A stretch of 58,950 nt of DNA, from positions 1 to 58,950 of the forward strand of contig CAZPUR010000004.1 in NCBI GenBank assembly GCA_964589815.1, written 5' to 3'. This document shows, piece by piece, positions 2,415-56,997 of this stretch (within the stretch, counting starts at the first letter, position 1; every line of letters starts with the position of its first letter). Position numbers and translations under genes: made by a program. The notes under the pieces are model-generated. The model was not told where the DNA came from, did no database searches, and saw only the letters and a program-made list of their open reading frames with translations. This stretch comes from an uncultured Pseudomonadales bacterium (lineage in GTDB: Bacteria; Patescibacteriota; Microgenomatia; UBA1400).

Positions 2415-3577
2415 TAATCGGCATTGACGCTAATGAAGCTAATGTAAAAAATAGGGTAGGCAGTAATGAATATGCATATCAAGTGCTAATGCACTTGTAT
2501 AAAAATCAATCCGCCGGCCGGCGGATAAAATTTAAAATTTTTCTCAAAGAAAAACCTTTAAAAGATTTACCCAAAGAAGCAAGTTGGTGGCAATACAGGG
2601 TGTTAAAACCCAAATTTTTATGGACCCAGTGGCGTTTGCCTTTAGCACTGATTTTAAATAGGGGAGAGGTTGATGTTTTTTTTAGCCCCGGGCACTATGC
2701 TCCCCGCTTTTGCCCCAATCCCCTAGTAATTTCGATTATGGACTTGGCTTTTTTACGCTTTCCTAAACAGTTTAAAAAAGACGATCTGTATCAGCTTAAA
2801 AACTGGACCGAAAGGTCAGTTAAGCAAGCTGATCATATTTTAACCATTTCTGAGTTTACTAAAAAAGAAATTATTCATTTTTATAATTATCCGGCTGATA
2901 AAATTACGGTCACTTACCCTGGAACAAGAAAGTTAAAAGTTAAAAGTGAAAATTCAAAAGTGAAAATTCAAAAGGCAAAGATTTTAGAACAATATAAGAT
3001 AGAAAAAAATAAATACTTTCTTTATATTGGTACGCTTCAACCGCGAAAGAATTTAATTAGGCTAATAGAGGCATTTGCCCGAGCAATCAACAATGAAACA
3101 ATGAAACAATTTAACAATTTGGTTATCGTAGGTAAGAAGGGTTGGTTGTATCAAGAAATATTTGAGAAAGTAGAATCCTTGGGCCTAGAGAAAAATGTCA
3201 TTTTTACTGGTTATGTTGAGGAAAAAGAAAAGAATGCTTTTTTAGAAAATGCTTTTGCTTTAATTCTTCCCTCTTTATATGAGGGTTTTGGTATCCCGGT
3301 TCTGGAAGCAATGCAACTAGGTTGTCCTGTGATTGTTTCCCAAAACTCTTCTTTACCGGAATTAGTAGGGAAAGGAGGATTATATATAGATAATCCTCTA
3401 TCTGTCGATTCTATTTATAAAGCTTTGTTAAAAATGGTAAAATTAGATAATAAGACAAGAAAAGAATTAATCAATAGAGCCCTTAAACAAGCTAAAAAAT
3501 TTTCTTGGCCAAAAGTAGCTAAAGAGATATTGGAGGTTTTATGTTTTACCTTGAAACTAAATCAGGCGAGAAGTTAA
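2411..3577 (+). CDS. GT4 glycosyltransferase
   Basis: Likely start ATG 2411 (MIIGIDA) overlapping upstream stop; GTLQPRKN, PSLYEGFGIPVLEA. Confidence 0.92.
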   Translation: MIIGIDANEANVKNRVGSNEYAYQVLMHLYKNQSAGRRIKFKIFLKEKPLKDLPKEASWWQYRVLKPKFLWTQWRLPLALILNRGEVDVFFSPGHYAPRFCPNPLVISIMDLAFLRFPKQFKKDDLYQLKNWTERSVKQADHILTISEFTKKEIIHFYNYPADKITVTYPGTRKLKVKSENSKVKIQKAKILEQYKIEKNKYFLYIGTLQPRKNLIRLIEAFARAINNETMKQFNNLVIVGKKGWLYQEIFEKVESLGLEKNVIFTGYVEEKEKNAFLENAFALILPSLYEGFGIPVLEAMQLGCPVIVSQNSSLPELVGKGGLYIDNPLSVDSIYKALLKMVKLDNKTRKELINRALKQAKKFSWPKVAKEILEVLCFTLKLNQARS

Positions 3578-4143
3578 ATATTAAACAAGCCTTACCGAAA
3601 ATAATCAATCGTTGGTATAATTATTGCCTTGATTTCAAGTTAATGCTACTTTGTTATGTTGGTTATATTCCTTCTCATTGTTTTCGCCGGTTTTGTTATC
3701 GATTGGCGGGAATTAAAATTGGTCGAGGTTCTACTATTCATATGTGGGCCAGGTTTTATGAGTCAAAGAATATTGTTATTGGAGAAGATACGATTATTGG
3801 CGACCATTGTTTTTTAGACGGCAGAGCCTCGCTTAAAATTGGTTCTCATACCGCCATTGCTTCTCAGGTTTTGATTTATAACAGCCAGCATGATGTTGAT
3901 TCTGAAGATTTTCGGCCAGTTGAATACCCAATCGAGATTGGCGATTATTGTTTTATTGGTGTCCGAGCCATTATTCTTCCTGGAGTAAAAATTGGTAGAG
4001 GAGCAATAGTTGCTTCTGGAGCAGTGGTGACCAAAGATGTAGCTCCAATGATGATTGTAGCCGGAGTGCCGGCTAAGGAAATAAGAAAAAGAGGGGTGAA
4101 AAAGCTTAATTATAGATTAGGACGGGCAAGACTGTTTCAATAA
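3541..4143 (+). CDS. Left-handed beta-helix sugar O-acyltransferase
   Basis: Hexapeptide repeats (IVIGEDTIIG, IEIGDYCFIG, VKIGRGAIVASGAVVTKDV), VAGVPAK. Confidence 0.88.
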   Translation: MFYLETKSGEKLNIKQALPKIINRWYNYCLDFKLMLLCYVGYIPSHCFRRFCYRLAGIKIGRGSTIHMWARFYESKNIVIGEDTIIGDHCFLDGRASLKIGSHTAIASQVLIYNSQHDVDSEDFRPVEYPIEIGDYCFIGVRAIILPGVKIGRGAIVASGAVVTKDVAPMMIVAGVPAKEIRKRGVKKLNYRLGRARLFQ

Positions 4144-4145
4144 TT

Positions 4146-4362
4146 TTAAGAATATGCTGAGGTCGTTTAGTTAAAAATTTTTTCTTCCAATCGCACGCGA
4201 ATATATTTGGAAGACCTAAAATAGTTGGTATTAAATAAGGCATAAAGACGCCCTCGAGTTATTAAAGAACAATCCTTAGGGCGAGGGAAGAGTAAAGTCA
4301 AAGGCGCGATGCTATCAATAGGAAGAAAGAAAATTTTTCCTAAACTTCCCGCATATTCTTAA
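4146..4362. mobile_element. 217-bp non-coding element with long imperfect terminal inverted repeats (MITE-like)
   Basis: Perfect 12-bp TIR ttaagaatatgc/gcatattcttaa extended by about 30 bp of imperfect IR; inner stems atcgc/gcgat and cgccct/agggcg; no ORF. Confidence 0.5.
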
Positions 4363-4366
4363 TAAA

Positions 4367-5263
4367 TTGTTAGTTTCCATCATTATTCCCAGCTTTAATA
4401 CTAAAAAACTTTTGCAAAACTGCCTAAGGTCTATTTTTGAACAAACAAAAAATATTAGTTTTGAGGTGATTGTAGCGGATAATGCTTCGACTGATGGTAC
4501 CGTTAAACTGATTCAAACTAAATTTCCCCAAGTAAAGTTGATCAAGAATCGAACTAACTTAGGTTATGCTAAGGCCAATAATCAAGCCCTGCGGCAAGCT
4601 CAAGGCAGGGTCATTTTATTTCTTAATTCAGACACCATCATTTTAGAGAAGGCCATAGAAAAATCAGTTGAGTTTATAAGACAAAGAGAAGATGTTGATA
4701 TTTTGGGCTGCCAGCTTTTATATCAGGATAAAACCATTCAACCATCAGGCGGCTTTTTCCCCAGCTTAACAAGAGTTTTTTTACAAATGTTCTTTATTGA
4801 CGATTTGCCTTTAGTTAATCATTTGGTAAAACCTTATCAGCAAAAAAGAAAAAGCTTTTATCGAAAAACTCAAAAATTGGATTGGGTTACGGGAGCATTT
4901 TTAATGGCAAAAAAGAAAGTGGTTGATAAGATTAAGGGTTTTGATGAAAAGTTTTTTATGTATAGCGAAGAAGTTGATTTTTGCTATCGAGCTAAAAAAG
5001 CGGGTTTTCAAGTTTGGTTTTGCCCCTTGGCTAAAATAGTTCATTTAAAGGGAAAAAGTTCGGCTGATGGTTTCAGAACCGCAGTTTTAGGCGAATACCA
5101 GGGACTGAGAAAATTTTATGAGAAATACCAGCCTGGATTAGGCTTGCTTATCTTAAGATTTTTGCTTAAAATAGGGGCCCTTTTAAGAATCTTTGTTTTT
5201 GGTATACTTAAAGGAGACAAGAATAAAAAGGAGATTTATGAAAAAGCTTTTGCTTTGGCTTGA
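4367..5263 (+). CDS. GT2 glycosyltransferase (rhamnosyltransferase-like), TTG start
   Basis: VSIIIPSFN, DNASTDGT, FLNSDT, DWVTGAF, FFMYSEEVDFC. Confidence 0.9.
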   Translation: MLVSIIIPSFNTKKLLQNCLRSIFEQTKNISFEVIVADNASTDGTVKLIQTKFPQVKLIKNRTNLGYAKANNQALRQAQGRVILFLNSDTIILEKAIEKSVEFIRQREDVDILGCQLLYQDKTIQPSGGFFPSLTRVFLQMFFIDDLPLVNHLVKPYQQKRKSFYRKTQKLDWVTGAFLMAKKKVVDKIKGFDEKFFMYSEEVDFCYRAKKAGFQVWFCPLAKIVHLKGKSSADGFRTAVLGEYQGLRKFYEKYQPGLGLLILRFLLKIGALLRIFVFGILKGDKNKKEIYEKAFALA

Positions 5264-8296: not shown

Positions 8297-8428
8297 ATGA
8301 TCAAATTCCAAGCAACAAATTCCAAACAATATTCAATGTCAAAATTCAAAACTCAAAACAGTTTAGAATTTGAGAAATTTGAATTTAGAATTTGTTTGCG
8401 ATTTGTAATTTGTTATTTGTGATTTATT
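8297..8428. repeat. Intergenic imperfect inverted repeat built of 7-8-nt periodic units
   Basis: A/C-rich arm (caaattc, caaaact) followed by complementary G/T-rich arm (gaatttg, gtaatttg, gttatttg). Confidence 0.75.
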
Positions 8429-10561: not shown

Positions 10562-10610
10562 AAATTATCATCCAGAGGATGATCGTCCCCTGGATGAGGA
10601 ATTAGAAATT
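10556..10610. repeat. 33-bp palindromic insert flanked by 11-bp direct repeats
   Basis: aattagaaatt (10556-10566) atcatccagaggatgatcgtcccctggatgagg aattagaaatt (10600-10610). Confidence 0.8.
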
Positions 10611-11752
10611 TGCGAATAGCAATAGATTGCCGTTTTTGGGGCACAAAACATACGGGTTTGGGTAGATATACTGAGAACCTTGTTTTAAATCTGCTCGAAA
10701 TAGACAAGGTTAATCGTTATTTTCTTTTTGTTTCTGAGAACAATGAAACAATGAAACAATGTAACAAGGCAACAGTTCTCCCACTTAATACCCCGCACTA
10801 TTCTTTAAAAGAACAAATTATCATTCCGAAAATTTTAAAAGAAATCAATCCCGACTTAGTCCACTTTCCTCATTTTAATGTGCCGATTCTTAATAATTTT
10901 CCTTATTTGATTACCATTCATGATTTAATCAAACACTATTCCAAAGGCAAAGAAACAACCACCAGAAACTCTTGGATTTATTTATTAAAATATTGGGGAT
11001 ATAAAACTGTTTTTACTCAAGCAGTAGGAAAAGCTAAAAAAATCATTGTTCCTTCAAAGTTCGTCAAAAGAGGATTATTGAAAAATTATCTCTTGGCTGA
11101 AGATAAAATCGAAGTTATTTATGAGGGAGTAGATAATAAGCTCAAAGCTCAAAGCTCAAAGCTCAAAGCTAAATCTCAAAAATCAAAACTTTTGAATAAA
11201 TATAAAATTAGAAGGCCCTATCTTTTATATGTTGGGAATGTTTATCCTCATAAAAACATCAGACGTTTAATTCTTGCAGTCAAAAAAATTAATCAAACAT
11301 TAATCATTGTTTGTTCCCGGGATGTTTTTTACCAGCGTTTGCAGCAGGTGGTTAAAGAATTTAAAGCAGAAAAATTTGTTAAATTAACAGGTTATGTTAC
11401 TGATAAAGAGCTAAACGTTTTATATGCTCAAGCTAAGGCTTTTATTAATCCTTCGCTAATGGAAGGCTTTGGTTTACCTGGCCTGGAAGCGATGCAGGCC
11501 GGTTGTCCGGTCGTTTGCAGCCAGATTCCTACTTTTAAAGAAGTTTATGACCAAGCGGTAGTTTATTTTAATCCCAAAAACATTGATGATATAGCAGAGA
11601 AAATCTTAAAAGTGATTAATTTTTCAGATAAAGAGAGGAAAGAGTTGATTAAAAAGGGAAAAAATCAGGCAAGCAAATACTCTTGGCAAAAATGCGCCCA
11701 AGAAACCCTTCAGCTATATCAGTCAATGGACAAATCAATAATCGGTAGATAA
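10610..11752 (+). CDS. GT4 glycosyltransferase, TTG start
   Basis: RIAIDCRF, GLGRY, ITIHDL, YPHKN, PSLMEGFGLPGLEA. Confidence 0.9.
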   Translation: MRIAIDCRFWGTKHTGLGRYTENLVLNLLEIDKVNRYFLFVSENNETMKQCNKATVLPLNTPHYSLKEQIIIPKILKEINPDLVHFPHFNVPILNNFPYLITIHDLIKHYSKGKETTTRNSWIYLLKYWGYKTVFTQAVGKAKKIIVPSKFVKRGLLKNYLLAEDKIEVIYEGVDNKLKAQSSKLKAKSQKSKLLNKYKIRRPYLLYVGNVYPHKNIRRLILAVKKINQTLIIVCSRDVFYQRLQQVVKEFKAEKFVKLTGYVTDKELNVLYAQAKAFINPSLMEGFGLPGLEAMQAGCPVVCSQIPTFKEVYDQAVVYFNPKNIDDIAEKILKVINFSDKERKELIKKGKNQASKYSWQKCAQETLQLYQSMDKSIIGR

Positions 11753-16553: not shown

Positions 16554-16658
16554 GGAAACGTCATTCCTGAAATTAATTCAGGACAGGCTCCGAATCCTGA
16601 TATTCATCAGGACAAGCCTTATTGAAGGAAACGTCATCCTGAACTTGTTTCAGGATCT
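16554..16658. repeat. Cluster of three REP-like hairpins
   Basis: tcctgaa-attaa-ttcagga; tcctga-tattca-tcagga; gtcatcctgaacttgtttcaggatct; ggaaacgtcat repeated at 16554 and 16627. Confidence 0.85.
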
Positions 16659-16997: not shown

Positions 16998-17023
16998 AGA
17001 TTCTGAAATAAATTCAGAATGAC
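16998..17023 (-). repeat. REP-like hairpin, inverted relative to the 16633 copy
   Basis: agattctgaaataaattcagaatgac; reverse complement gtcattctgaatttatttcagaatct matches 16633-16658. Confidence 0.85.
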
Positions 17024-17029
17024 GAGGAT

Positions 17030-18911: not shown

Positions 18912-19733
18912 ATGAAAAAGATACTGTTAATTGTAGTCATTTTTATCATTTTAGGAGTTGGTGGTTTTTTTGTTTATAAAAAGGTGATCAGTAGGCCTAA
19001 AGATGAGGCTAGAAAAACCATTACCAGTAAAAAACCGGAGGTTAACCTTTTAGAGCGGGAGAAAAGACCTTATGTGACTCTTATTCCCCGAGCTGATGGC
19101 CGTGAAGTTTCCATGACCATTAATGACCTGAAAAACCAAGAAGAGCTGGTGGAATATGAGCTTGAATATCAAGCCGGCAGTATGCTTCAAGGGGCGGGCG
19201 GCAGAATTGATTTTAGTGAAGAACCGGCGCCGGTGACCAAGAAGCTCTTATTCGGCTCCTGCTCCAAAGGTAAATGTAAATATGACGAAGATGTTTCCGG
19301 AGGCAGTCTGACTTTATACTTTACCGGCCAAGAAGAATATGGTTTGAAAACGGAATTTACTTTAAATAAGATGGAAGATAAAAAAGGTGTTTTTACTTCC
19401 AGAGATGTTAAAACTAGCTTAGATGTGGGAGAAAAGGGTTTAGATAATGATGTTTTTGTGATCGTGGCTTCAACCATGGGGTTGCCTGCCTCGCCGGCAG
19501 GCGGGCCGAGTGAAGTAGGGGGAGAAGTGGTAGCTGGTCCAATTGGATTTTTTACCGCCGAGAAACAGACAATTAAAAAAGCGACCTTGACTTTTAAAGG
19601 CATTAAAGCAGAAGGAAACTTGAAAGTTTTAGGCTGGGACGGAAGCAATTGGCAAGAATATGAGACAAAATTAGAGGATAATACGGCCACTGCCCAGGTT
19701 GACCAATTAGCCACTTTTGTTTTGGTTAAATAA
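18912..19733 (+). CDS. Membrane-anchored hypothetical protein
   Basis: N-terminal TM, long ORF with beta-rich content; no family recognised. Confidence 0.7.
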   Translation: MKKILLIVVIFIILGVGGFFVYKKVISRPKDEARKTITSKKPEVNLLEREKRPYVTLIPRADGREVSMTINDLKNQEELVEYELEYQAGSMLQGAGGRIDFSEEPAPVTKKLLFGSCSKGKCKYDEDVSGGSLTLYFTGQEEYGLKTEFTLNKMEDKKGVFTSRDVKTSLDVGEKGLDNDVFVIVASTMGLPASPAGGPSEVGGEVVAGPIGFFTAEKQTIKKATLTFKGIKAEGNLKVLGWDGSNWQEYETKLEDNTATAQVDQLATFVLVK

Positions 19734-21928: not shown

Positions 21929-22018
21929 ATCCCGCAGTCCCGACGTAACGTCGGGGTACGGGATGAAAACTATTACTTTTTAGGAACTGCAGATTTAAAA
22001 AATCTGCAGAGTTTTCAT
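21929..22018. repeat. Two-hairpin element, copy A
   Basis: atcccgca..tacgggat stem, then atgaaaact..ctgcagatt/aatctgcag..agttttcat; second copy at 37273. Confidence 0.75.
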
Positions 22019-27197: not shown

Positions 27198-28641
27198 TCT
27201 AAAGAAAATTAAAAAAATTCATTTTACCGGCATTAAAGGTGTGGGTTTAACCGCCTTGGCCTTGGTGGCTAAAGATATGGGTTTTAAGATTTCTGGTAGT
27301 GATGTGGCCGAATCTTTTGTGACTGATGAAGCATTGAAGAAAGCAGGCATTAAGACTCAAATTGGTTTTAATGAGAAAAGAATTAAGGATGCAGATTTGG
27401 TGATTTTTTCTGCCGGTCATGGTGGATCGGAGAATATTGAAGTTCAATCAGCTAGAAAACAGGCAATTCCGATTTTATCTCATGCTCAGGCTTTGGCTTT
27501 GCTGGTAAAGTCAAAAAAAGCCATTTGTGTGGCTGGGGTGGGAGGGAAAACCACGACTTCTTCGATGATTGCTACCGTTTTCCAAGTGGCTGGGGTTCAT
27601 CCCAGTTATGCCATTGGCGTGGGTGGGATTAGACCTTTAGGCCTACCGGCAAAATTTGACAAAAAAGGTAAATATTTTGTGGCCGAGGCGGATGAATATT
27701 TTTCTCCACCCCCAGACTCTAAACCTAAATTTTGGTATCAAAATCCTTTTGTAGCCGTAATTACCAATCTAGAATATGATCATCCTGATGTTTATAAAAA
27801 CCTGGAACATACTTTAAAAGTTTTTGCTAAATTTATTGAAAGGACGCCAAAAGAAGGTTTGGTTCTAGTTTGTATTGATAATCCCAATACAGAAAAGCTA
27901 ATTCAATTTTGGCCAAAGACCAATCGTCCTTTGGACGAAATTAAAGTACCAATTAGTACCTATGGTTTTTCCAGAAAAGCTGATTGGCAAATTACTTTAA
28001 TTGATAAAAGTGAAGAAAAAATCAGTTTTAACTTAAAGTATAAGAATAAAGTTTTCAAGAATATCGAGTTAAATATTCCAGGAGAGTTTAATGTTAGAAA
28101 TGCGGCGGCCGCTTTTGCTGTCGGCCGCTTTTGCGGCATTAGCCCCAGAAAAATCAGGGAAGGGTTAAAGGCCTTTAAGGGTACCCAAAGAAGATTTGAG
28201 CTTATTAGGGAAATCAAGGGGATTAAACTTTATGATGATTATGCTCATCATCCAGTCCAAATAAAAGCAACTCTAAAAGGAGCCAGAGACTGGTTTGGTA
28301 AGAAAAGAATTATCGTTGTTTTCCAACCCCACACTTATAGCCGCACTAAAGCCTTATTAAAAGAATTCAGTTTGGCTTTTAATGAGGTTGACTTAGTAAT
28401 TATTACTGATATTTATGCTTCGGCTCGAGAAAAAGATAATCCTACCATTTCAGGAAGGCTGTTAGCTAAAAAAATAAAAGAACATCAGGCCAATGTGGTT
28501 TACCAGGGTGGGGAGAAAGAAGTGGCCAGTTATTTAGGAAAAATAGCTAAAAAAGGAGATGTAATTTTTACTTTAGGAGCCGGAGATATATTTAAGTGGC
28601 ACAACTCAATTGCAAAAGCAATTGAGAGAAATCAGAAATAA
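27190..28641 (+). CDS. murC: UDP-N-acetylmuramate--L-alanine ligase
   Basis: HFTGIKGVGL, GVGGKTTT, EADEY, YDHPD, RRFE, DDYAHHP, FQPHTYSRT. Confidence 0.96.
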   Translation: MIDLKKIKKIHFTGIKGVGLTALALVAKDMGFKISGSDVAESFVTDEALKKAGIKTQIGFNEKRIKDADLVIFSAGHGGSENIEVQSARKQAIPILSHAQALALLVKSKKAICVAGVGGKTTTSSMIATVFQVAGVHPSYAIGVGGIRPLGLPAKFDKKGKYFVAEADEYFSPPPDSKPKFWYQNPFVAVITNLEYDHPDVYKNLEHTLKVFAKFIERTPKEGLVLVCIDNPNTEKLIQFWPKTNRPLDEIKVPISTYGFSRKADWQITLIDKSEEKISFNLKYKNKVFKNIELNIPGEFNVRNAAAAFAVGRFCGISPRKIREGLKAFKGTQRRFELIREIKGIKLYDDYAHHPVQIKATLKGARDWFGKKRIIVVFQPHTYSRTKALLKEFSLAFNEVDLVIITDIYASAREKDNPTISGRLLAKKIKEHQANVVYQGGEKEVASYLGKIAKKGDVIFTLGAGDIFKWHNSIAKAIERNQK

Positions 28642-28676: not shown

Positions 28677-29534
28677 ATGAAAATATTAAAAAACAAAATT
28701 TTAGCTCCATATACGACTTTTAGCATTGGTGGGCCAGCTGATTATTTGGTTGAAGCAAAGACAAAAAAAGAAATTATCAAGGCGCTAATTTGGGCAAAAA
28801 AAAGAAAAATTCCCTGGTTTGTTTTAGGCAGTGGCAGTAATATATTGGTCAGCGATAAGGGACTTAGGGGGCTAGTGATAATGAATAAAAACTCCAAAAC
28901 TCCAAAACTCCAAAACTCCAAGATTATGGCTTCTTCAGGCGTGAGTTTGGCAAAATTAATAGACTTTGCTACTCAACATCATCTTGCTGGGTTGGAGTTT
29001 CTGGCGGGGGTTCCGGGGACAGTAGGAGGGGCGATTGTGGGCAATAGTGGACCCAAGAATGACTCTATGGCTCAAGCTGTAGAAAAGGTGATTGTTTTGG
29101 GAGAAGATGGCTTAATTTATGATTTAACCAAGGAAGAATGTCAGTTTAATTATCGTAGCAGTCGATTTAAAAAAACAAAAGAAATTATTTTAGAAGTAGT
29201 TTTTAAATTAAAACCTTCAAAACCAGAATTAATCAAGAAAAAAATTGAACGAGCTTTATCTTTAAGAAAAAGTCAGCCTCAGGGGAAAAGCGCGGGCAGT
29301 ATTTTTAAAAACCCGCCAGGAGAAAAGGCCGGCCATCTGATTGATAAAGCCGGGTTAAAAGGAAAGAAAATAGGCGGGGCGATGATTAGCAAAGAACATG
29401 CTAATTGGATTGTCAATTTAGGCCATGCCCAAGCTAAAGATGTGATAAAATTAATCGGTCTTTGCAAAAAGAAAGTTAAAGAGAAGTTTAACATTGAGTT
29501 GGAAGAAGAAATTAGGTTGATAGGGAATTTTTAA
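28677..29534 (+). CDS. murB: UDP-N-acetylenolpyruvoylglucosamine reductase
   Basis: TTFSIGG, GSGSN, GVPGTVGGA, YRSSRF, SAGSIFKNP, HANWIVN. Confidence 0.96.
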   Translation: MKILKNKILAPYTTFSIGGPADYLVEAKTKKEIIKALIWAKKRKIPWFVLGSGSNILVSDKGLRGLVIMNKNSKTPKLQNSKIMASSGVSLAKLIDFATQHHLAGLEFLAGVPGTVGGAIVGNSGPKNDSMAQAVEKVIVLGEDGLIYDLTKEECQFNYRSSRFKKTKEIILEVVFKLKPSKPELIKKKIERALSLRKSQPQGKSAGSIFKNPPGEKAGHLIDKAGLKGKKIGGAMISKEHANWIVNLGHAQAKDVIKLIGLCKKKVKEKFNIELEEEIRLIGNF

Positions 29535-29675
29535 AATTGACCTAATTAATTTAATTTCTAATTGACCTAAATAAGCACCAAGTACCAATTAAAATTTTAA
29601 ACTTTTTGAAAATTGGAATTTAGAATAATTGCGGTTTGTTTAGAATAATTAGGTTAATTAGAATAATTAGAAATT
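29535..29675. repeat. Intergenic periodic inverted-repeat element
   Basis: aattgacct units facing agaataatt units; aatttctaatt (29553) pairs with aattagaaatt (29665). Confidence 0.7.
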
Positions 29676-37272: not shown

Positions 37273-37400
37273 ATACCGCACCAAAGAAAACTCCGTCAGA
37301 ATGATGAATTTAATCTAAAAGTATGATAAAGTTTTCTTGGTACGGTATGAAAACTATTACTTTTGAAAAACTGCAGATTAGAAATCTGCAGAGTTTTCAT
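37273..37400. repeat. Two-hairpin element, copy B
   Basis: ataccgcaccaaagaaaact/agttttcttggtacggtat stem, then atgaaaact..agttttcat as in copy A. Confidence 0.75.
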
Positions 37401-40633: not shown

Positions 40634-41452
40634 TCATTTTGATGGTTTTAATGAAGGATAAAAGGTTTTAATTCTTTTTAATTCTTTCAGGTAAAAGTAA
40701 TAAGCACCTTCTCCTAAATAATTATCTCTCATTAGCTCAAAAGGGAGTTGAGGATCCTTTTTAAGAATGGAAAGATAAATTAATATTAATTGGATCTTTT
40801 TTAGTTTACCTTTTTCAACTTGATCAATGAACTTTCTATACTCACTATTTATTTTTTTAATCTCATAAACTTCCCCTAAGACATCTCTCATATCTTTACC
40901 ACCAATATGACTTCCTTCTCTTAATTCTGAAACTAAAACTAGCCCTATTGTTCCTGTTTGTTTAACAAAATCAGCAATTAATCTTTTGGGATTGTATGGA
41001 GTAATCCAGACACTTTGCTGAAGCATGCCACAACCTAATTTTTTAAGATAATTTCTTAAATAATCTCGAAATCTTTTCCTCTCTTCCGGAATATCATAGG
41101 TGATTAAATAAAGAATTCCGTCCCAAAGCCTCTTTTGTTCATATACTGGTAAGTTCCTTTTTAATCTTTTTAAGCCAAATCGAGTGATTTTAAAGTAATC
41201 TTCTTTCCTCTGAAGATAACCCTTAGTAGTAAGGTAGTAAATTGTTCTCTTCAAATTTTTTCTATGGACAATTTTTGTAAGATGAACAGCCTCGCTAATA
41301 ACGCCAGAAAGATCCTTATTACTTTTATAAGTTCCTATTAAACTCAGTTTAAAAAAGACAGTAAATAAGCATATATCAATTAAAGTGTCAAAAAGTCCAA
41401 GGGTTAACTTATTGAGTCTTTTCTTATAATTTTTTTTATGTTTTCTTGCCAT
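40634..41452 (-). CDS. PaaX-family regulator (wHTH + Cas2-like fold + PaaX C-terminal)
   Basis: WDG..YDIPEERKRFRD..LG..LQQSVWITP; DPQLPFEL. Confidence 0.82.
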   Translation of the reverse strand: MARKHKKNYKKRLNKLTLGLFDTLIDICLFTVFFKLSLIGTYKSNKDLSGVISEAVHLTKIVHRKNLKRTIYYLTTKGYLQRKEDYFKITRFGLKRLKRNLPVYEQKRLWDGILYLITYDIPEERKRFRDYLRNYLKKLGCGMLQQSVWITPYNPKRLIADFVKQTGTIGLVLVSELREGSHIGGKDMRDVLGEVYEIKKINSEYRKFIDQVEKGKLKKIQLILIYLSILKKDPQLPFELMRDNYLGEGAYYFYLKELKRIKTFYPSLKPSK

Positions 41453-41469: not shown

Positions 41470-41503
41470 TAATAATTGACACGCGGCCGCGTGTCAATTA
41501 TTA
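41470..41503. promoter_or_regulatory. Perfect 34-bp palindrome in divergent promoter region
   Basis: taataattgacacgcggccgcgtgtcaattatta, with ttgaca on both strands. Confidence 0.7.
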
Positions 41504-43003: not shown

Positions 43004-44387
43004 AGCTTGGGAAGATAAAAAAATATTGATTCTCGGTTTTGGCCGTGAAGGTTTAAGCAGTTTGGAGTTTTTACGCCAAAAATTTCATGATAAAGAAATT
43101 GGTGTAGCTGATCAATTAAAATTTAGAGATTTAAACTATAAACTTAAAGAAAAAATTAAAAAATTTTCTCCCCTGAAATTGCATTTAGGAAAAGACTATT
43201 TAAAAGCAATTGATAAATATAACATTATTATTAGATCGCCAGGTTTGTCTATGGCTTCGCCAGCGCTAATTAGAGCCAAAGAGAAAGGTAAAATAATTAG
43301 CTCGCAGACAAAAATCTTCTTTGATCTTTGCCCGGGAATAATTATTGGAGTGACAGGGACAAAGGGCAAGAGCACAACATCTTCTTTAATCTTTGCAATT
43401 TTAAAGGCAGCCAGGAAAAAGGTTAAGTTAATTGGTAATATTGGTAAACCAGCTCTAACTTTTTTAAACGGAAATGGTAAAGATACTATCTTTATTTTTG
43501 AGCTTTCTTCTCATCAGTTAGTTGATTTAAAAAAAAGTCCTCACACTGCAGTTTTATTAAACATTGTCCCCGAGCATTTGGATTATTATAAAAATTTTAA
43601 AGAATATCTGAATGCTAAAAAGAGCTTTATCCTTTATCAAGACAAAGATGATTATTTAATTTACAATGCTTCTTTTCCTGTTACTAGAAAATTATCAAAA
43701 ATAAGCAAAGCTAAAAAAATTCCTTTTTATATTGATAGACAAAAATGCCCCGGTTGTTTTCCAGATGGAGGTAAGCTTGTTTATTGTTATTCTCAATCAG
43801 GCAAGGAAGAAATAATCAAAATAAAAGATATTCCCTTAAGAGGAAAATTTAATTTACAAAACGTAATGCCGGCGATTATCGTGGCTAAAATATTTAATCT
43901 TGATAATCAAACCATTGCTAGAGCGATTAAAAAATTTAAACCTTTACCTCATCGTTTAGAATTAGTCGGTATTTTTAAAGGCATTACTTTTTACAATGAC
44001 TCTTTAGCTACCAACCCTAATGCTACCATAGCCGCCATTGATACCTTTAAAAATAAAATTGGGACGATTTTTTTAGGTGGCCATGAGAGAAATTTAGACT
44101 TTAGCGCTCTGGCCAAACAAATTTTGCTTTATAAAATCAAAAATATTATTCTTTTTCCGGTCAATGGAAAAAGAATTTGGCAAGAGATTCAAAAAAGAGC
44201 AGGAACATTTTCTCCTCAACACTTTTTTGCTAAAAACATGAAAGAAGCAGTTAAATTAGCTTATCAACATACGCCTCAAGGGAAAATTTGTTTACTTTCT
44301 TGTGCGGCTCCAAGTTTTGGTTTGTTTAAGGACTATAAGGATAGGGGAGACCAGTTTAAAAAGTGGGTAAAGAAGTTAAGATCCTGA
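42996..44387 (+). CDS. murD: MurD-family glutamate ligase (probably MurD2)
   Basis: GFGREG, RSPG, GVTGTKGKSTT, ELSSHQL, EHLDY, HRLE, NDSLATN. Confidence 0.9.
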   Translation: MIKAWEDKKILILGFGREGLSSLEFLRQKFHDKEIGVADQLKFRDLNYKLKEKIKKFSPLKLHLGKDYLKAIDKYNIIIRSPGLSMASPALIRAKEKGKIISSQTKIFFDLCPGIIIGVTGTKGKSTTSSLIFAILKAARKKVKLIGNIGKPALTFLNGNGKDTIFIFELSSHQLVDLKKSPHTAVLLNIVPEHLDYYKNFKEYLNAKKSFILYQDKDDYLIYNASFPVTRKLSKISKAKKIPFYIDRQKCPGCFPDGGKLVYCYSQSGKEEIIKIKDIPLRGKFNLQNVMPAIIVAKIFNLDNQTIARAIKKFKPLPHRLELVGIFKGITFYNDSLATNPNATIAAIDTFKNKIGTIFLGGHERNLDFSALAKQILLYKIKNIILFPVNGKRIWQEIQKRAGTFSPQHFFAKNMKEAVKLAYQHTPQGKICLLSCAAPSFGLFKDYKDRGDQFKKWVKKLRS

Positions 44388-44404
44388 AATAAATTCAGGA
44401 TGAC
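44379..44404 (-). repeat. REP-like hairpin containing the murD stop codon
   Basis: agatcctgaaataaattcaggatgac, near-identical to 16998-17023. Confidence 0.85.
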
Positions 44405-44409
44405 AAAAT

Positions 44410-45512: not shown

Positions 45513-45634
45513 AATTATCAAATCACAAATTCCAAATCACAAATAAATTCAAATATTCAAAATTCAAAATACAAAACGTTTAGAATTTATAATTTAGGAT
45601 TTTGGTATTATTTGTTATTTGGTGCTTGATAATT
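45513..45634. repeat. Intergenic periodic inverted-repeat element
   Basis: Terminal IR aattatcaa/ttgataatt; caaat periodic left arm, atttg periodic right arm. Confidence 0.8.
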
Positions 45635-49963: not shown

Positions 49964-50140
49964 ATCAAGCTCCAAATATCAAGCACCAAATTTCAAATAA
50001 TTTTCAAATTCCAATTTCCAAACAATTTATAATTTTGAATTTGGAGCTTTGAATTCCTGCCGGCCGGCAGGTTTAGAATTTTTAATTTTGAAAATTGAGA
50101 TTTATTTGGGATTTGTAATTTGGGATTTGTGGTTTTGCTG
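49964..50140. repeat. Intergenic periodic inverted-repeat element with nested 16-bp palindrome
   Basis: caagcaccaaat/caaatt left arm, atttggg right arm; cctgccggccggcagg at 50056-50071. Confidence 0.8.
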
Positions 50141-50163: not shown

Positions 50164-53085
50164 ATGAAGAAATTCGAGAATGTTAATCCCAGGCCAGATT
50201 TTCCTCAAATGGAGAAGGAATTGCTTCAGTGGTGGTATCAAACGGGAATAGTAAAAAAATACCTTCATAAGAATAAAGGCAGTCAGAAACGGTTTGCTTT
50301 TATGGATGGACCAATTACCGCCAATAACCCGATGGGGGTTCATCATGCCTGGGGCAGAACTTATAAAGATCTTTGGCAGCGCTATAAAAACATGAAGGGT
50401 TATGAGCAGAGATTTCAAAATGGTTTTGACTGTCAAGGTCTTTGGGTGGAAGTGGAAGTAGAAAAAGAATTGGGCTTCAAATCCAAAAAAGATATTGAGA
50501 AATTCGGTATCGCCAAGTTTGTTAATTTATGCAAAGCCAGAGTGAAGAAATTTGCCCGAGTGCAAACCGAACAATCGAAAAGACTAGGATACTTTATGGA
50601 TTGGGAACATTCTTATTTCACTATGAGCGATGAAAATAACTATATGATTTGGTATTTTTTGCAAAAATGCTGGCGGAATAGTTGGTTGTACCAGGGAAGA
50701 GATTCAGTCCCTTGGTGTCCGCGCTGCGGCACGGCTATTTCCCAGCATGAGATGCTCACCGAGGACTATAAAGAGGTAACCCATGAGTCGATCTATTTTA
50801 AACTTCCCATTATTTCAAAAGGCTGGCCCAAGACTTATTTTTTAGTTTGGACCACGACTCCCTGGACGATTCCGGCTAATGTGGCCTTAGTCGTTGACCC
50901 TAAAAAAGACTATCTTTTAATCAAAAACGGCTCGGAGAAATTGGTGGTTTTAAAAGAAAGAGCGAAAGTCCTTTTTCCTCAAAAATATACCAAGGCCCAA
51001 GTCGTCAAAGGCAAGGAACTGATTGGGCTTAATTATCAGGCTCCTTTTGCTCATTTGCCTCGGCTAAAAAAAAGCTTGGGTAGCTACGTTCATAAAGTAG
51101 TGGCCTCAGATGCCTTGATTTTACCGGTAGCAGATAATGAAGGCACGGGCGTGGTTCATATTAATACCGGCGGCGGGGCTGAGGATTATAAGATTGGTCT
51201 TAAAGAAAATTTGCCTTTAGTAGAGTCGATAGACGAAGAAGCCAATTATTTGGAGCAAATGGGAAACTTAAGCGGTAAAAATGCCAAAAAACATCCGGAA
51301 TTGATTTTGGACTATCTTAGAAATAAAGACAAAGGCAAGTTTTTCCTTAAGACGGAGAGGGTGACTCACCGTTATCCAGCCTGCTGGCGCTGTAAAGAAG
51401 AATTGGTTTGGCGGGCGGTTGATGAGTGGTATATTAGTATGGACAAGAAAGATCCGAATGATAAAAAAGGCCGGACTTTACGCCAAAAAATGATTGATGT
51501 GGCCAAAAAAATCCGCTGGATTCCGGGCTTTGGTTTAAAAAGAGAACTGGATTGGCTGAAAAATATGGATGATTGGCTGATTTCTAAAAAACGCTATTGG
51601 GGGTTGGCCTTACCGATTTGGCAATGCCAGTGCGGCCATTTTCAGGTTATTGGTTCTGAGGAAGAATTAAGTCAAAAAGCAGCTCAAGGCTGGTCTGAGT
51701 TTAAGGGTCATAGTCCCCATCGTCCTTGGGTTGATAAAATTAAAATAAAATGCTCCCAGTGTGGTCAATTAGCTTCTCGGATTGCTGATGTAGGCAATCC
51801 TTGGCTGGACGCGGGCATTGTTAATTTTTCTACTCTGATTGATCCGAAAACCAAGAAATTAAGTTATACCACTGACAAAAAATATTTTAAAAAATGGTTT
51901 CCGGCTGATTTTATTACCGAGTCATTCCCAGGACAGTTCAAGAACTGGTTTTATTCGATGATTGCTATGGCCACGGTTTTAGAAGATCAGGAGCCTTATA
52001 AAACCGTTTTAGGTTTTGGGACTTTGTTGGGTGAGGATGGCCGGCCGATGCATAAATCTTGGGGTAATGCGATTGAATTTAATGAAGGGGCAGACAAAAT
52101 CGGAGTTGATGTGATGCGCTGGATGTATCTGACTCACCATCCGGAAAAAAACCTGCTTTTTGGTTATAAAATTGCTGATGAAACCAGAAGAAGATTTCAT
52201 TTGACCCTATGGAACGTCTATAATTTTTTGGTTACCTATGCTAATTTAAACCATTGGCAGCTAAAAAAACTTTCTCCCCAGGGATTAAAAATTTTAGATA
52301 AATGGATTTTAACCAAGCTTGACCTTTTGGCCTTTCAGGTGGGAGGATTTTTAGACGATTATAAGCCTGACGAGGCGGCTCTTTTAATAGAGAAATTTGT
52401 TCAAGACTTATCCACCTGGTATGTGAGGCGCTCTCGGGATAGAGTCAGCTTATTAACCGATGATAAAAATGACCTAAATGTTTGTTTAAATGTTTTAAGC
52501 CAAGTTTTATTAATGCTTTCAAGAATATTAGCTCCTTTTAACCCCTTTATTAGTGAAATAATTTATAAAAACCTTAGTGGAGAAGAATCAGTTCATCTGG
52601 CTTCCTGGCCGGAAAAAAATTCTGAGATTAAAAAAACAGACAAAGATTTACTTAAACAAATGGATTTAGTGCGTCAAATTTGTGAGTTAGGTCACAGTCA
52701 AAGAAAAGAGAAGGGGATTAAAGTTAGACAACCACTAAAGAAGTTAAAAGTTAAAAGTGAAAAGTTAAAAGTGAAATTAAAGAATCAGAAAGAATTAATT
52801 CAATTAATTAAAGAAGAGCTAAATGTTAAACAGGTAGAATTTATTAAAGGTAAAAAACTAGAGGTAAGCTTGGAGACGAAACTAACTCCCCTATTGAAAA
52901 AAGAAGGGGAGGCCAGAGAGTTGATGAGGAAAATTCAAGAGCAACGGAAAAAAGCTGGTTGCCAATTAAGTCAGTTAATAGTTATTACTCTCCCTTCTTG
53001 GCCTAAAGAATTTGAAAAGGAAATTAAGTCAAAAACTTTGGTTAAAGAGATAAGAAAAGGGAAAGAAATTAAGATTGTTGAATAA
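50164..53085 (+). CDS. ileS: Isoleucine--tRNA ligase, type 2, with GVHH and PMHKS motifs
   Basis: DGPITAN, GFDCQGL, WTTTPWT, RYWG, EGEARELMRKIQEQRKKAG C-terminus. Confidence 0.93.
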   Translation: MKKFENVNPRPDFPQMEKELLQWWYQTGIVKKYLHKNKGSQKRFAFMDGPITANNPMGVHHAWGRTYKDLWQRYKNMKGYEQRFQNGFDCQGLWVEVEVEKELGFKSKKDIEKFGIAKFVNLCKARVKKFARVQTEQSKRLGYFMDWEHSYFTMSDENNYMIWYFLQKCWRNSWLYQGRDSVPWCPRCGTAISQHEMLTEDYKEVTHESIYFKLPIISKGWPKTYFLVWTTTPWTIPANVALVVDPKKDYLLIKNGSEKLVVLKERAKVLFPQKYTKAQVVKGKELIGLNYQAPFAHLPRLKKSLGSYVHKVVASDALILPVADNEGTGVVHINTGGGAEDYKIGLKENLPLVESIDEEANYLEQMGNLSGKNAKKHPELILDYLRNKDKGKFFLKTERVTHRYPACWRCKEELVWRAVDEWYISMDKKDPNDKKGRTLRQKMIDVAKKIRWIPGFGLKRELDWLKNMDDWLISKKRYWGLALPIWQCQCGHFQVIGSEEELSQKAAQGWSEFKGHSPHRPWVDKIKIKCSQCGQLASRIADVGNPWLDAGIVNFSTLIDPKTKKLSYTTDKKYFKKWFPADFITESFPGQFKNWFYSMIAMATVLEDQEPYKTVLGFGTLLGEDGRPMHKSWGNAIEFNEGADKIGVDVMRWMYLTHHPEKNLLFGYKIADETRRRFHLTLWNVYNFLVTYANLNHWQLKKLSPQGLKILDKWILTKLDLLAFQVGGFLDDYKPDEAALLIEKFVQDLSTWYVRRSRDRVSLLTDDKNDLNVCLNVLSQVLLMLSRILAPFNPFISEIIYKNLSGEESVHLASWPEKNSEIKKTDKDLLKQMDLVRQICELGHSQRKEKGIKVRQPLKKLKVKSEKLKVKLKNQKELIQLIKEELNVKQVEFIKGKKLEVSLETKLTPLLKKEGEARELMRKIQEQRKKAGCQLSQLIVITLPSWPKEFEKEIKSKTLVKEIRKGKEIKIVE

Positions 53086-54852: not shown

Positions 54853-54874
54853 TTTTAAATAAAAGGAGTCAGTT

Positions 54875-55747: not shown

Positions 55748-56262
55748 CGCAGCCAAGCCCTGCCCACAATATCATCTTTAGAAATGTAACCCCATTCTCT
55801 TGAGTCGCTGGAATGGGAGCGATTGTCTCCAGCCATAAAATATTGTTCTTCAGGCACCACTATTTCTCCACCCTCAGGTAAAAATTGACCGCCCTGAGTG
55901 TAAACATCTTCAGCTAAATAAGCCGATTCATCTAAAAACTTATCATCAATAAAAAATCTTCCTTGTTTTAAACTGACGCTTTCGTTTGGCAGACCAATAA
56001 TTCTTTTAATATAATCATAGCTTTGATTAACCGGAGCTTTAAAGATAATGACATCGCCTCTTTCAGGTTCATGGATACGATAGGTAATTTTATTGGTCAG
56101 CAGATATTCGCCGTTTTCAAAATTGGGCTGCATGGAGTTGCCTTTAACCTGATGGGGCTGGAAAAGAAAGAGGTAGATAATGACGAAAATAACCAGGGCG
56201 GTGACAATGGTTTCAATAAAGTCCAAAATAAAAGCGCCGATGATTCTTAGTATCCGAAACAT
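55699..56262 (-). CDS. lepB: Signal peptidase I
   Basis: GNSMQP, YIKRIIG, GDNRSHSSDSR. Confidence 0.95.
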   Translation of the reverse strand: MFRILRIIGAFILDFIETIVTALVIFVIIYLFLFQPHQVKGNSMQPNFENGEYLLTNKITYRIHEPERGDVIIFKAPVNQSYDYIKRIIGLPNESVSLKQGRFFIDDKFLDESAYLAEDVYTQGGQFLPEGGEIVVPEEQYFMAGDNRSHSSDSREWGYISKDDIVGRAWLRYWPPSASGLIPKIAW

Positions 56263-56329
56263 AATATTTCATTATAAAGGGAAATTAGATTGTGACGCAA
56301 GAGCAATTTTGGTAAAATCATATCTAAAA

Positions 56330-56381
56330 GGGTCCATAGCTTGAGCCAGAGGCTCATCGTCCTCTGGACGGCAGTGGTAGA
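56330..56381 (+). pseudogene. tRNA-Val 5' fragment with palindrome inserted in the D-arm
   Basis: gggtcca-tagct-[tgagccagaggctcatcgtcctctggacgg]-cagtggtaga, ending 3 nt before the GIY-YIG ATG. Confidence 0.7.
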
Positions 56382-56384
56382 TAG

Positions 56385-56636
56385 ATGTTTTACTATGTTT
56401 ATTTACTAATAAGCCTTAAAAACGGGAAAACCTATGTTGGTTTTACGAGCAAACAGCCCCAACAACGTCTGGTAGAACACAACATGGGCGTTAATAAATG
56501 GACAAAGCAAAACGGTCCTTTTAAATTGATATATTGGGAAAAGTTTTTTTGTAAAAAAGATGCCATCATGAGAAAAAAATTTTTTAAAAGTGGACAAGGA
56601 AAGAAATTAAAACAGATAATAGTTAAATATTATTAG
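56385..56636 (+). CDS. Small GIY-YIG nuclease family protein (catalytic Glu apparently replaced by Lys)
   Basis: YYVYLL..TYVGFT..RLVEHN..YWE..AIMRKKFFKSG. Confidence 0.88.
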   Translation: MFYYVYLLISLKNGKTYVGFTSKQPQQRLVEHNMGVNKWTKQNGPFKLIYWEKFFCKKDAIMRKKFFKSGQGKKLKQIIVKYY

Positions 56637-56641
56637 ATTTT

Positions 56642-56713
56642 GGGCTCGTAGCTCAGTGGTAGAGCGTTCCGTTCACATCGGAGAGGTCATAGGTTCAATC
56701 CCTATCGAGCCCA
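56642..56713 (+). tRNA. tRNA-Val(CAC)
   Basis: Acceptor gggctcg/cgagccc, D-arm gctc/gagc, anticodon ttccg-ttCACat-cggag, T-arm atagg-ttcaatc-cctat; CCA not encoded. Confidence 0.95.
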
Positions 56714-56783
56714 CTATTTTAATAATCTAGTTGTTCCCAAAAAATAGATTGTAGTAGAAGGGCAATGTGAAATCGTTCTACCA

Positions 56784-56997
56784 GGGTCCATAATAGCTTG
56801 AGCCAGAGGCTCACCGTCCTCTGGACGGCAGTGGTAGAGCGTTCGGTTCACATCCGAAAGGCCCCCTGGTTCAAATCCAGGCACGGTCACTAGCTTTGGC
56901 AGGCGGGTCCGAAAGGTCAGAGGTTCGATACCTCTCGAGTCCACAAGTCCAGTCTGGCGGGTCGTAGGGGTTGATGGTTCAAGTCCATCTGGACCCA
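56784..56997 (+). other. Composite tRNA-Val relic: interrupted 5' half plus three stacked 3' halves
   Basis: gggtcca, D-arm with palindrome, ttcgg-ttCACat-ccgaa, then T-arms at 56865, 56919 and 56973; final tggaccc-a pairs with the 5' gggtcca. Confidence 0.75.

Follow-up and report, generated by a model that had tools for sequence, protein, structure and literature searches.

Small single-domain GIY-YIG nucleases of the Ssn type (CDD cd10448) cleave single-stranded DNA site-specifically, as shown for four homologues, and their genes are flanked by NTS/SRM hairpins (CGTCATTCCCGCGMAVGCGGGAATCYRG) in an NTS-ssnA-NTS layout for which the authors drew comparisons to insertion sequences and to repetitive extragenic palindromes (REPs) and their RAYT proteins (Chenal et al. 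2025, Nat Commun, PMC11893778). The same hairpins had been catalogued as CGTC-tagged REPs (CGTC-REPs), including Neisseria dRS3 and the Rickettsia palindromic elements RPE-4 and RPE-6, with copies noted inside coding sequence and no dedicated transposase found (Di Nocera et al. 2013, PMC3733652). Here we describe the whole 58,950-nucleotide stretch of contig CAZPUR010000004.1 (the window), from a Microgenomates-type bacterium of the candidate phyla radiation (CPR), which encodes two stand-alone GIY-YIG proteins, GIY-YIG 1 and GIY-YIG 2, and show its anatomy, the association of the two genes with hairpins, the covariation of these hairpins and the empty sites in relatives. The window probably holds two separate nuclease-plus-hairpin partnerships together with one unrelated class of periodic repeats.

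GIY-YIG 1 resembles the Ssn/SRM system in its size (~96 amino acids, aa), its single domain, its inverted (C/T)GTCAT hairpins and the solo copies of these, some in coding sequence; it differs in the AT-rich stems (CCTGAA) that fail the published degenerate pattern, in the low copy number (4-5 in 59 kb) and in its CPR host, a group unmentioned in PMC11893778, where tRNA genes are not discussed either. That paper was reached by a literature search with the literal string GTCATTCC. REPtrons (RAYT, IS200/IS605-like Y1 transposases) likewise have a small nuclease gene between inverted, short, tagged hairpins that also occur as singles and arrays, but with an HUH/Y1 fold instead of GIY-YIG and a GTAG instead of a CGTC/TGTC tag, so that the resemblance is one of function and not of membership. 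GIY-YIG 2 and its mini-hairpins fall outside the Ssn family. Its nearest solved relatives are the UPF0213/YhbQ proteins 1ywl (EF2693) and 1zg2 (BH0048), of equal size and single domain but labelled hypothetical only, and a literature search on UPF0213 and GIY-YIG returned no paper in which this family is connected with hairpin repeats or with tRNA genes. Phage T4 SegB (PMC2330249) is encoded among tRNA genes as well, and was proposed to cleave the gene-less allele, with repair copying the gene and its tRNA flank; it comes from a phage, is larger and includes a DNA-binding domain, whereas GIY-YIG 2 is an 83-aa chromosomal catalytic domain alone, accompanied by a hairpin-bearing tRNA fragment, and any cleavage by it is putative. 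Searches pairing GIY-YIG with tRNA, palindromes, RAYT, YhbQ, UPF0213 or Patescibacteria yielded nothing beyond work on fungal mitochondria, T4 SegB and the paper on CGTC-REPs.

Two further kinds of element invite comparison. Rickettsia palindromic elements are short palindromes tolerated in frame in essential genes, as is an element adding 10 residues to murC here, but most are 100-150 bp long against 30 nt; RPE-4 and RPE-6, being of the CGTC-REP class, are related to the hairpins around GIY-YIG 1 and not to the murC element. Integrative elements targeting tRNA genes bring a replacement tRNA or tRNA part and leave displaced tRNA fragments that accumulate, features also found beside GIY-YIG 2, where however no integrase is present, units are as short as ~106 nt, and the junctions are hairpins in place of attachment-site core repeats.

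A preliminary description of the window, made from its letters alone, had joined these features into one undescribed system of micro-elements that small GIY-YIG proteins mobilise or seed. The two stand-alone genes it named both carry Pfam PF01541 and do lie at the two densest hairpin clusters; all four of its large periodic inverted repeats were recovered, folding better than shuffled sequence; and its statement that no transposase or integrase is recognisable in the window held when the translations were read and 10 unassigned open reading frames (ORFs) were scanned against Pfam. Its single system, by contrast, resolves into at least four separate phenomena, with nuclease subfamilies 28% identical and with different hairpins. 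The proposed link between GIY-YIG genes and hairpins stands for two hairpin families tied to two genes, here and on dozens of unrelated contigs, but not for the periodic repeats, and the word 'undescribed' now applies to the GIY-YIG 2 half, for which no description was found, the GIY-YIG 1 half having been published in 2025 as Ssn/SRM.

GIY-YIG 1 and its CGTC-tagged hairpins

The PF01541 domain spans residues 5-79 of GIY-YIG 1 and no further domain is present, as in the small single-domain Ssn nucleases; an NCBIfam scan returned no informative match. Over 1,400 proteins from several phyla are homologous to it, with identities of 60-79%. The gene is flanked on both sides by SRM-like hairpins in inverted orientation (Table 1), with the consensus CGTCATYCTGAA-N5-TTCAGRATC, and the hairpins of this family in the window have in common a tag (CGTC or TGTC), a stem of 8 bp that opens with AT, a loop of 5 nt and a trailing C, all of which fit the published description of CGTC-REPs. 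From the solo copy at the murD/ftsW junction, murD takes both its final codon and its stop codon.

Relatives of GIY-YIG 1 were examined at 80 metagenomic loci. Up to 100 nt upstream of the gene lay 47 hairpins (38 in plus orientation, 41 loci) and up to 60 nt downstream 58 (41 in minus orientation, 42 loci), while the 1-3 kb flanks held 31 only. The hairpins take the form GTCATYY-stem-loop-stem, their stems covarying between genomes and the tag remaining constant; many are the canonical NTS GTCATTCCCGCGAAAGCGGGAATC, at loci where the relatives are 50-67% identical, and the C-terminus of some homologues (P0083, P0056, P0067) reads through the equivalent hairpin. Only two of the 80 loci lie beside a tRNA, as determined with ARAGORN.

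Relatives, referred to here by L numbers, display empty sites. The murD/ftsW junction of L004 reads ctggtaaga directly followed by aaatatggc, where the window has ~24 extra bases of hairpin, and in L062 the DUF4012 gene and recO are 8 nt apart, against 479 nt with the cassette in the window; these two sites show the GIY-YIG 1 unit and the solo murD hairpin to be insertions. Judged by sequence, GIY-YIG 1 and its hairpins are a member of the published Ssn/SRM system in a CPR version, and the window hairpins are filed as a divergent, AT-rich CPR variant of SRM/CGTC-REP. Hairpins of the SRM/NTS type (e.g. GTCATTCCGGCGCAGGCCGGAATC) were also seen six times in L054 (1655-21066) and eight times in L062 (1404-20541), in fetched stretches of ~22 kb each that hold no Ssn-like gene; L054 is a member of Dehalococcoidia with 61% GC, and its hairpins read as long spurious ORFs containing '..IPACAGMT..'.

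GIY-YIG 2 lies in a tRNA-embedded cassette

The family profile of GIY-YIG 2 matched PDB 1ywl over positions 2-81 (E=4.4e-8) and 1zg2 (E=2.6e-7), that is, over the whole UPF0213 domain, and a profile search gathered a family of 6,365 proteins, mostly from Patescibacteria. With an identity of 28-33% to GIY-YIG 1 (28% between profiles), GIY-YIG 2 belongs neither to the Ssn/SRM subfamily nor to its hairpin type. All of 12 independent family loci, which were picked for long contigs and not randomly and four of which share one genomic locus, have a tRNA, tmRNA or tRNA-like sequence as neighbour (Table 1). The order in most of them is a tRNA 5′ fragment with a hairpin pair in its D-loop, the ORF and a complete tRNA, and in several the fragment is an exact duplicate of the 5′ part of the neighbouring tRNA. 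In L169, L170, L176 and L185, the stop codon of the ORF is formed by U8-A9-G10 of the downstream tRNA; in L182, an intact tRNA lies between fragment and ORF. No integrase was found in the window or at any of the 12 loci.

The locus between lepB and tRNA-Val is filled in four lineages (the window, L086, L170 and L020, the ORF of the last being decayed) and empty in L005, L007, L041, L009-L012, L016, L019, L023, L024, L048 and L062; in L005, for instance, lepB is followed by the promoter TTGGTAAAAT and then by one clean tRNA-Val. The tRNA alleles at this locus are chimeric. Variable presence at a conserved locus and co-conversion of the flanks, which characterise homing endonucleases, are thus both found for GIY-YIG 2. 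An exact-sequence look-up of GIY-YIG 2 retrieved the same locus from other samples only, 100% identical. In the motif RE(K)FFKSG (56571-56576), the window copy carries a Lys in place of the Glu of nearly all aligned relatives, a Glu that is kept in strain L087 (L087 2984-2989), 99.9% identical to the window. Over 5.4 kb the window and L087 differ at four positions, and because three of these (56334-56575) fall inside the cassette, the latter may be decaying or evolving quickly.

The element accompanying GIY-YIG 2 is a 30-nt pair of 15-nt mini-hairpins, each of 6 bp with a 3-nt loop (unit TNNNCC-WNW-GGNNNA, no GTCAT tag), the first loop being A-rich and the second T-rich. At 10 of the 12 loci, it sits at a fixed point in the D-loop of a tRNA copy, usually the 5′ fragment directly upstream of the gene; in L179, it is carried by a tRNA-like copy downstream of the ORF. 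Among 14 copies of the pair, 98.8% of the cells pair and both sides change in 7 of 12 base pairs, yielding a covariation score of 0.465 versus 0.144 for shuffled sequence (reached in 0 of 500 shuffles), and all slid registers collapse. The preliminary description had seen a 25-bp family in tRNA, murC and intergenic DNA; this family is real and its exact form is the 30-nt pair, present at four sites in the window. The murC copy adds 10 residues missing from solved MurC proteins and from all 32 best representative orthologues, and it stays in frame because 30 is divisible by 3.

An interpretation of the pair as a tRNA intron was not adopted, since a complete tRNA of the same kind, free of the pair, is also present at nearly all loci; only L179/L180 departs from this, with just a degenerate copy. 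A tRNA-Pro-like copy in L179 (1764-1900) bears mini-hairpin pairs in both D-loop and T-loop, and another in L182 (1747-1900) combines a D-loop pair with GC-rich hairpins in its anticodon loop and variable region; ARAGORN calls neither. A literature search found no description of a tRNA-embedded UPF0213-type cassette or of the 30-nt element.

GC-rich hairpins mark displaced tRNA-Val 3′ ends

Downstream of GIY-YIG 2, a single intact tRNA-Val is followed by further tRNA-Val pieces (Table 1). The chimeric pseudogene combines the repeated 5′ fragment and its pair with a CAC anticodon arm, a T-arm and the acceptor 3′ strand CACGGTC, which mismatches the 5′ end; with this mismatched acceptor stem and an Rfam tRNA score of 25.7 bits for 56827-56889, below the threshold of 29, it does not qualify as a functional tRNA. 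Among the acceptor strands CACGGTC, CGAGTCC and TGGACCC, only TGGACCC pairs with the 5′ end GGGTCCA, and the three match tRNA-Val alleles of relatives, being L041/L005-like, L048-like and L023-like, respectively. The stretch 56785-56997 had also been considered as one large tRNA/tmRNA-like RNA (fold z=-2.7), which was rejected because its pieces match the 3′ ends of three tRNA-Val alleles.

In L020, the old tRNA-Val is split after TTCACA by CCTGCCCGCC-gcagat, an intact tRNA-Val and cagcttt-GGCAAGCGGG, and resumes with T-CGAAG; the inserted unit of ~106 nt is thus a tRNA between two GC-hairpin arms, placed in the anticodon loop of the older tRNA. A right-hand junction of the L020 type occurs twice in the window, as AGCTTTGGCAGGCGGG-T-CCGAAAGG and as GGCGGG-T-CGTAGGGG. 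GC-rich hairpins are the hallmark of these stacked and displaced 3′ ends of tRNA-Val. Such units would have entered the tRNA-Val anticodon loop between positions 37 and 38 again and again, bringing a tRNA bounded by GC-rich hairpins each time, and later deletions between the repeated 5′ halves would have left the stack of displaced 3′ ends.

Elsewhere in the window, a GC-rich hairpin lies inside the coding sequence 18912-19733, where the L062 homologue is by eye ~5 residues shorter, and another is nested at the apex of the ftsZ-ileS inverted repeat. The motif ggcaggcggg, reported before at 19496 and 56898, is indeed present at both and is part of this GC-hairpin family, which recurs at related loci; its arms were also found in the tRNA loops of L182 and inside SRM loops of L090, L115 and L086. 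This recurrence at an inverted-repeat apex, in tRNA loops and in SRM loops suggests that insertions favour hairpin loops.

Periodic repeats lie apart from the nuclease genes

Three of the four long AT-rich inverted repeats have arms of 56-59 nt with 64-68% ungapped complementarity, while the one at murB/murA has ungapped arms of 29 nt at 79% and a long gapped hairpin fold; the RNA-fold z-scores of the four range from -1.9 to -3.6. They share heptamers, CAAATTC-type in the left and GAATTTG-type in the right arm, and three have the centre GTTTAGAATTT in common, with an overall identity between copies of ~59%. Tandem arrays, counted at a Tandem Repeats Finder score >=40 against 30 dinucleotide shuffles (a lower threshold being too noisy in relatives), were ~25-fold enriched for periods 7/14/21 (10 versus 0.4) and numbered 4 versus 0.5 for periods 8/16, with no enrichment of period-3n arrays.

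Six such runs lie inside genes (Table 1). Some are alike at non-homologous positions: 2930-2965 in a glycosyltransferase gene and 52741-52776 in ileS are 94% identical, and 3089-3117 and 10739-10767 in two glycosyltransferase genes are 97% identical. The segment 2949-2989 has 76% identity to the arm and centre of inverted repeat 3. Glycosyltransferases gain 5-8 residues from the runs and IleS 4-5 residues in a variable loop that is already IKVK in orthologues, whereas MurB has no length change compared with solved MurB proteins. Another run of the same periodic class (period 7/14, AATTCTT / AATTCTGAGTTTTT) was observed at 302-348, within the gene of the first membrane protein (31-1266).

The four inverted repeats and the six intragenic runs are 3-30 kb away from either GIY-YIG gene. 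Similar inverted repeats exist in the Microgenomates L027, L029, L031, L037 and L062, none near a GIY-YIG gene, and tblastn detected no GIY-YIG homologue in these repeat-bearing stretches of 13-23 kb each. At the ftsW-murG junction, the distant L029 has an inverted repeat, but by our reading the close relative L004 has only a ~24-nt spacer. We regard the periodic runs, together with the long AT-rich inverted repeats, as a Microgenomates-wide repeat class separate from the nucleases; they most likely arose by slippage or copying of periodic units independently of them.

Genomic setting and other repeats

The window has a low GC content (~37%) and nearly all genes on the plus strand, among them glycosyltransferases, the dcw cluster from mraZ to ftsZ, ileS, rodA, rplU, rpmA, parB and lepB. 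By IleS identity, its nearest genomes are L004 (73%) and the Beckwithbacteria assembly L005 (70%). Several public assemblies of the closest relatives, L004 among them, are labelled Bathyarchaeia, Gammaproteobacteria, Clostridia or Nevskiaceae and yet share the Microgenomates-type gene order of dcw cluster, ileS and tRNA-Val, so these bins are probably mislabelled. Contigs from other samples are 100% or 99.9% identical to the part of the window compared, from 53.6 to 59 kb, and the odd anatomy of this region is therefore no assembly artefact.

Perfect short hairpins are modestly enriched in the window (29 versus ~18 in shuffles) and local inverted repeats number 18 versus 1-3 in block shuffles; the latter were found by an ungapped diagonal scan, as the scoring of a blastn self-comparison missed known repeats. 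An Rfam search of the whole window at the gathering threshold, and of 56250-57100 at a permissive E-value, yielded no family that accounts for the hairpins, tmRNA and other matches being dismissed as chance-level. No Y1 transposase (IS200/IS605-type) is present among the translated ORFs.

Three other repeats were observed. A 46-nt direct repeat, 87% identical, at 21955-22009 and 37339-37391 ends in the hairpin CTGCAGATT..AATCTGCAG; one copy directly precedes ftsI (22017) and the other a FemAB-like gene (37413), and the repeat may be a common leader or regulatory element of cell-wall genes. A perfect 34-bp palindrome, TAATAATTGACACGCGGCCGCGTGTCAATTATTA, at 41470-41503 separates a divergent PaaX-like regulator gene (40634-41452, minus strand) from a gene starting at 41600 and is probably the operator of that regulator. 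A treble-clef zinc-finger gene (57849-58352) contains an in-frame 186-bp tandem duplication (57867-57937 / 58053-58123, 71 nt at 100% identity), also found in strain L087.

Table 1. Features of the window and RNA genes at the loci of the GIY-YIG 2 family
Feature	Positions or loci	Strand	Remarks
GIY-YIG 1, Ssn-like single-domain nuclease, 96 aa	16657-16947	-	Pfam PF01541 E=1.5e-15
SRM-like CGTC-tagged hairpin CGTCATTCCTGAAATTAATTCAGGAC	16559-16584	+	
Degenerate hairpin GAATCCTGATATTCATCAGGAC	16592-16613	+	Same stem type, without GTCAT tag
SRM-like hairpin CGTCATCCTGAACTTGTTTCAGGATC	16632-16657	+	Abuts GIY-YIG 1 stop codon
SRM-like hairpin, inverted	16999-17024	-	Upstream of GIY-YIG 1; closes hairpin-gene-hairpin unit
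Solo SRM-like hairpin, TGTC-tagged	44380-44405	-	murD/ftsW junction
5′ fragment of ancestral tRNA-Val	56330-56381	+	Behind conserved TTGGTAAAAT promoter
GIY-YIG 2, UPF0213-like, 83 aa	56385-56636	+	PF01541 E=1e-14
tRNA-Val(CAC), sole intact tRNA	56642-56714	+	ARAGORN; Rfam 69.7 bits
Chimeric tRNA-Val pseudogene	56784-56890	+	Direct repeat 98%; comparison with relatives' tRNAs
Junction AGCTTTGGCAGGCGGG, then displaced tRNA-Val 3′ part	56892-56943	+	Acceptor CGAGTCC (L048-like)
Junction GGCGGG, then oldest displaced tRNA-Val 3′ part	56956-56997	+	Acceptor TGGACCC
Mini-hairpin pair, tRNA-Val 5′ fragment	56342-56371		D-loop
Mini-hairpin pair, repeat of 5′ fragment	56799-56828		
Mini-hairpin pair, intergenic	10568-10597	+	Between two glycosyltransferase genes
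Mini-hairpin pair inside murC	27909-27938	+	In frame; adds FWPKTNRPLD
GC-rich hairpin GCCTGCC-TCGCC-GGCAGGC	19484-19502	+	Inside coding sequence 18912-19733
GC-rich hairpin CCTGCC-GGCC-GGCAGG	50056-50071	+	Apex of ftsZ-ileS inverted repeat
Inverted repeat 1, heptamer-periodic, AT-rich	8303-8425		
Inverted repeat 2, periodic, AT-rich	29526-29668		murB/murA
Inverted repeat 3, heptamer-periodic	45513-45634		ftsW/murG
Inverted repeat 4, heptamer-periodic	49964-50135		ftsZ/ileS
Period-7/14 run	2929-2979	+	Glycosyltransferase gene
Period-8 run (AACAATGA)n	3089-3118	+	Glycosyltransferase gene; +5-8 residues vs paralogues
Period-8 run	10739-10774	+	Another glycosyltransferase gene
Period-7 run (AAGCTCA)n	11138-11180	+	Glycosyltransferase gene
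Perfect period-8 run (AAAACTCC)x4.2	28888-28921	+	Inside murB
Period-7/14 run	52741-52776	+	Inside ileS
Val-CAC	window, L086, L170-175, L020		GIY-YIG 2 family, 4 loci
Val-GAC	L169		GIY-YIG 2 family locus
Pro-TGG	L176-178, L181, L185		GIY-YIG 2 family, 3 loci
Pro-GGG	L182-184		GIY-YIG 2 family locus
Asp-GTC	L084/85		GIY-YIG 2 family locus
tmRNA	L042		GIY-YIG 2 family locus
Degenerate tRNA-like	L179/180		GIY-YIG 2 family locus

Discussion

Alongside the two partnerships and the separate periodic class, we propose more tentatively, and with less confidence, that UPF0213-type mini GIY-YIG nucleases are the partners of 30-nt double-hairpin micro-elements and tRNA-replacement cassettes in CPR bacteria, acting on loops exposed as single strands. 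Action on such loops would explain why insertions are found in the D-, anticodon and T-loops of tRNAs, in the loops of repeat hairpins and, in frame, in essential genes, and the proposal would make for an independent GIY-YIG/hairpin partnership alongside Ssn/SRM and a function for UPF0213.

How the enzymes act, in which direction cause runs, how the elements insert and whether the nucleases mobilise them we infer as follows. At GIY-YIG 1, the published mechanism is adopted: the Ssn-type enzyme would bind its cognate hairpin in single-stranded DNA and cut beside it, and hairpin copies would have spread round the genome, one landing on the murD stop codon. GIY-YIG 2 would ride a cassette residing in tRNA genes, made up of the 5′ fragment with the pair, the ORF and a replacement tRNA. 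Its nuclease would recognise the hairpin and cloverleaf structures of tRNA genes and elements as single-stranded DNA and cut in exposed loops, with repair copying the cassette by analogy with homing; the 30-nt pair would be the cognate element, able to insert alone.

Several points weigh against these readings. The published degenerate SRM pattern HGTCWYN(0-2)YYVSBRHN(0-5)WNVSBRGN(0-2)RNCYNB has no strict match in the window, because the stem CCTGAA breaks its V-S-B positions (26 of the 80 homologous loci have at least one strict match). The window copy of GIY-YIG 2 may be inactive owing to its Lys for Glu, proliferation has been modest, given only four copies of the pair in 59 kb, and the 12 family loci carry the selection already described. 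The homing model explains neither how the restored tRNA escapes re-cleavage nor what confines the pair to the displaced fragment, and the stacked 3′ ends could come from classical integrase events followed by deletion. In the periodic class, the resemblance of two intragenic runs to inverted-repeat arms means that these repeats may also be copied and are not purely slipped.

The view originally proposed, in which every hairpin, palindrome, periodic insert and large inverted repeat belongs to a single family seeded or mobilised by GIY-YIG proteins, could account for the location of both genes at the densest hairpin clusters and for the nesting of families, with GC-rich hairpins in SRM loops, at the apex of inverted repeat 4 and at tRNA junctions. 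It is nevertheless highly improbable, as the two proteins belong to different subfamilies with different cognate hairpins, the periodic runs have no conserved tag or hairpin, and the periodic features lie far from either gene and recur in relatives' stretches where tblastn finds no GIY-YIG. Nor is it likely that nothing here is mobile, the hairpins being regulatory or terminator structures and GIY-YIG 2 a housekeeping factor for tRNA-gene repair or RNA processing. The conserved hairpin structure agrees with this, and co-transcription with tRNAs is indicated by stop codons overlapping tRNA positions 8-10 and by the tRNA promoter upstream; but orthologues lack the solo copies seen inside murC and on the stop codon of murD, presence varies at one orthologous locus, every cassette is accompanied by partial tRNA duplications, six different RNA genes with unrelated surroundings have the cassette, and the L020 ORF has decayed.

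Tyrosine-integrase attachment sites are classically recognised by displaced tRNA 3′ ends that start at the anticodon loop, and three such ends stand in tandem in the window. They might thus be scars of integrase-borne islands, later deleted, with GIY-YIG 2 as a passenger. We consider this very unlikely in view of the missing integrase in the window and at all 12 loci, of the L020 unit, which is just ~106 nt long and has its tRNA between GC-hairpin arms, and of the adjacency to tRNA at 12 of 12 loci, which would hardly be expected of a passenger. For the periodic class only, a further explanation is that the heptamer inverted repeats are elements resembling miniature inverted-repeat transposable elements, moved by an enzyme encoded elsewhere, with the intragenic runs as truncated copies. 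Three copies alike in size and in the centre GTTTAGAATTT, the likeness of 2949-2989 to inverted repeat 3, and the ftsW/murG repeat, absent in L004 and present at the same junction in L029, make this possible, if somewhat unlikely; slippage is favoured because the copies are just ~59% identical and have neither defined ends nor target duplications, and because MurB is unchanged in length and the IleS run extends a pre-existing motif.

With respect to the remaining claims of the preliminary description, its in-frame gene inserts hold in so far as the periodic runs are real and the murC pair is a real insertion, but MurB and IleS, with no and only 4-5 added residues, do not bear them out. Palindromes in tRNA copies were borne out as mini-hairpin pairs in D-loops, although only one tRNA is intact and the others are fragments or a chimeric pseudogene. 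The comparison with relatives that it had called for did reveal empty sites: the murD hairpin is absent from L004, the murC pair from 32 orthologues, and L005 and no fewer than 12 other relatives have an empty lepB-tRNA-Val locus. Its analogies with REP/RAYT and with Rickettsia palindromic elements were apt, the hairpins around GIY-YIG 1 being of the CGTC-REP class that includes RPE-4 and RPE-6 (PMC3733652).

The tRNA-embedded UPF0213-type cassette with its 30-nt double hairpin appears to be a new take on the nuclease-plus-hairpin theme. Such cassettes break tRNA detection, ARAGORN calling one tRNA where there are four tRNA-derived pieces, and put spurious peptides into annotated proteins. The heptamer periodicity of the Microgenomates repeats, also inside genes, is strong and merits its own study. 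Further single-strand nucleases with hairpin specificity would make useful tools, an argument already put forward for Ssn. If the proposal holds, the widespread UPF0213/YhbQ-like proteins would gain a testable role, the Ssn discovery would widen to a general strategy of minimal GIY-YIG domains each with a cognate hairpin, and very small CPR genomes would be seen to tolerate selfish elements in tRNA genes and in essential cell-wall enzymes.

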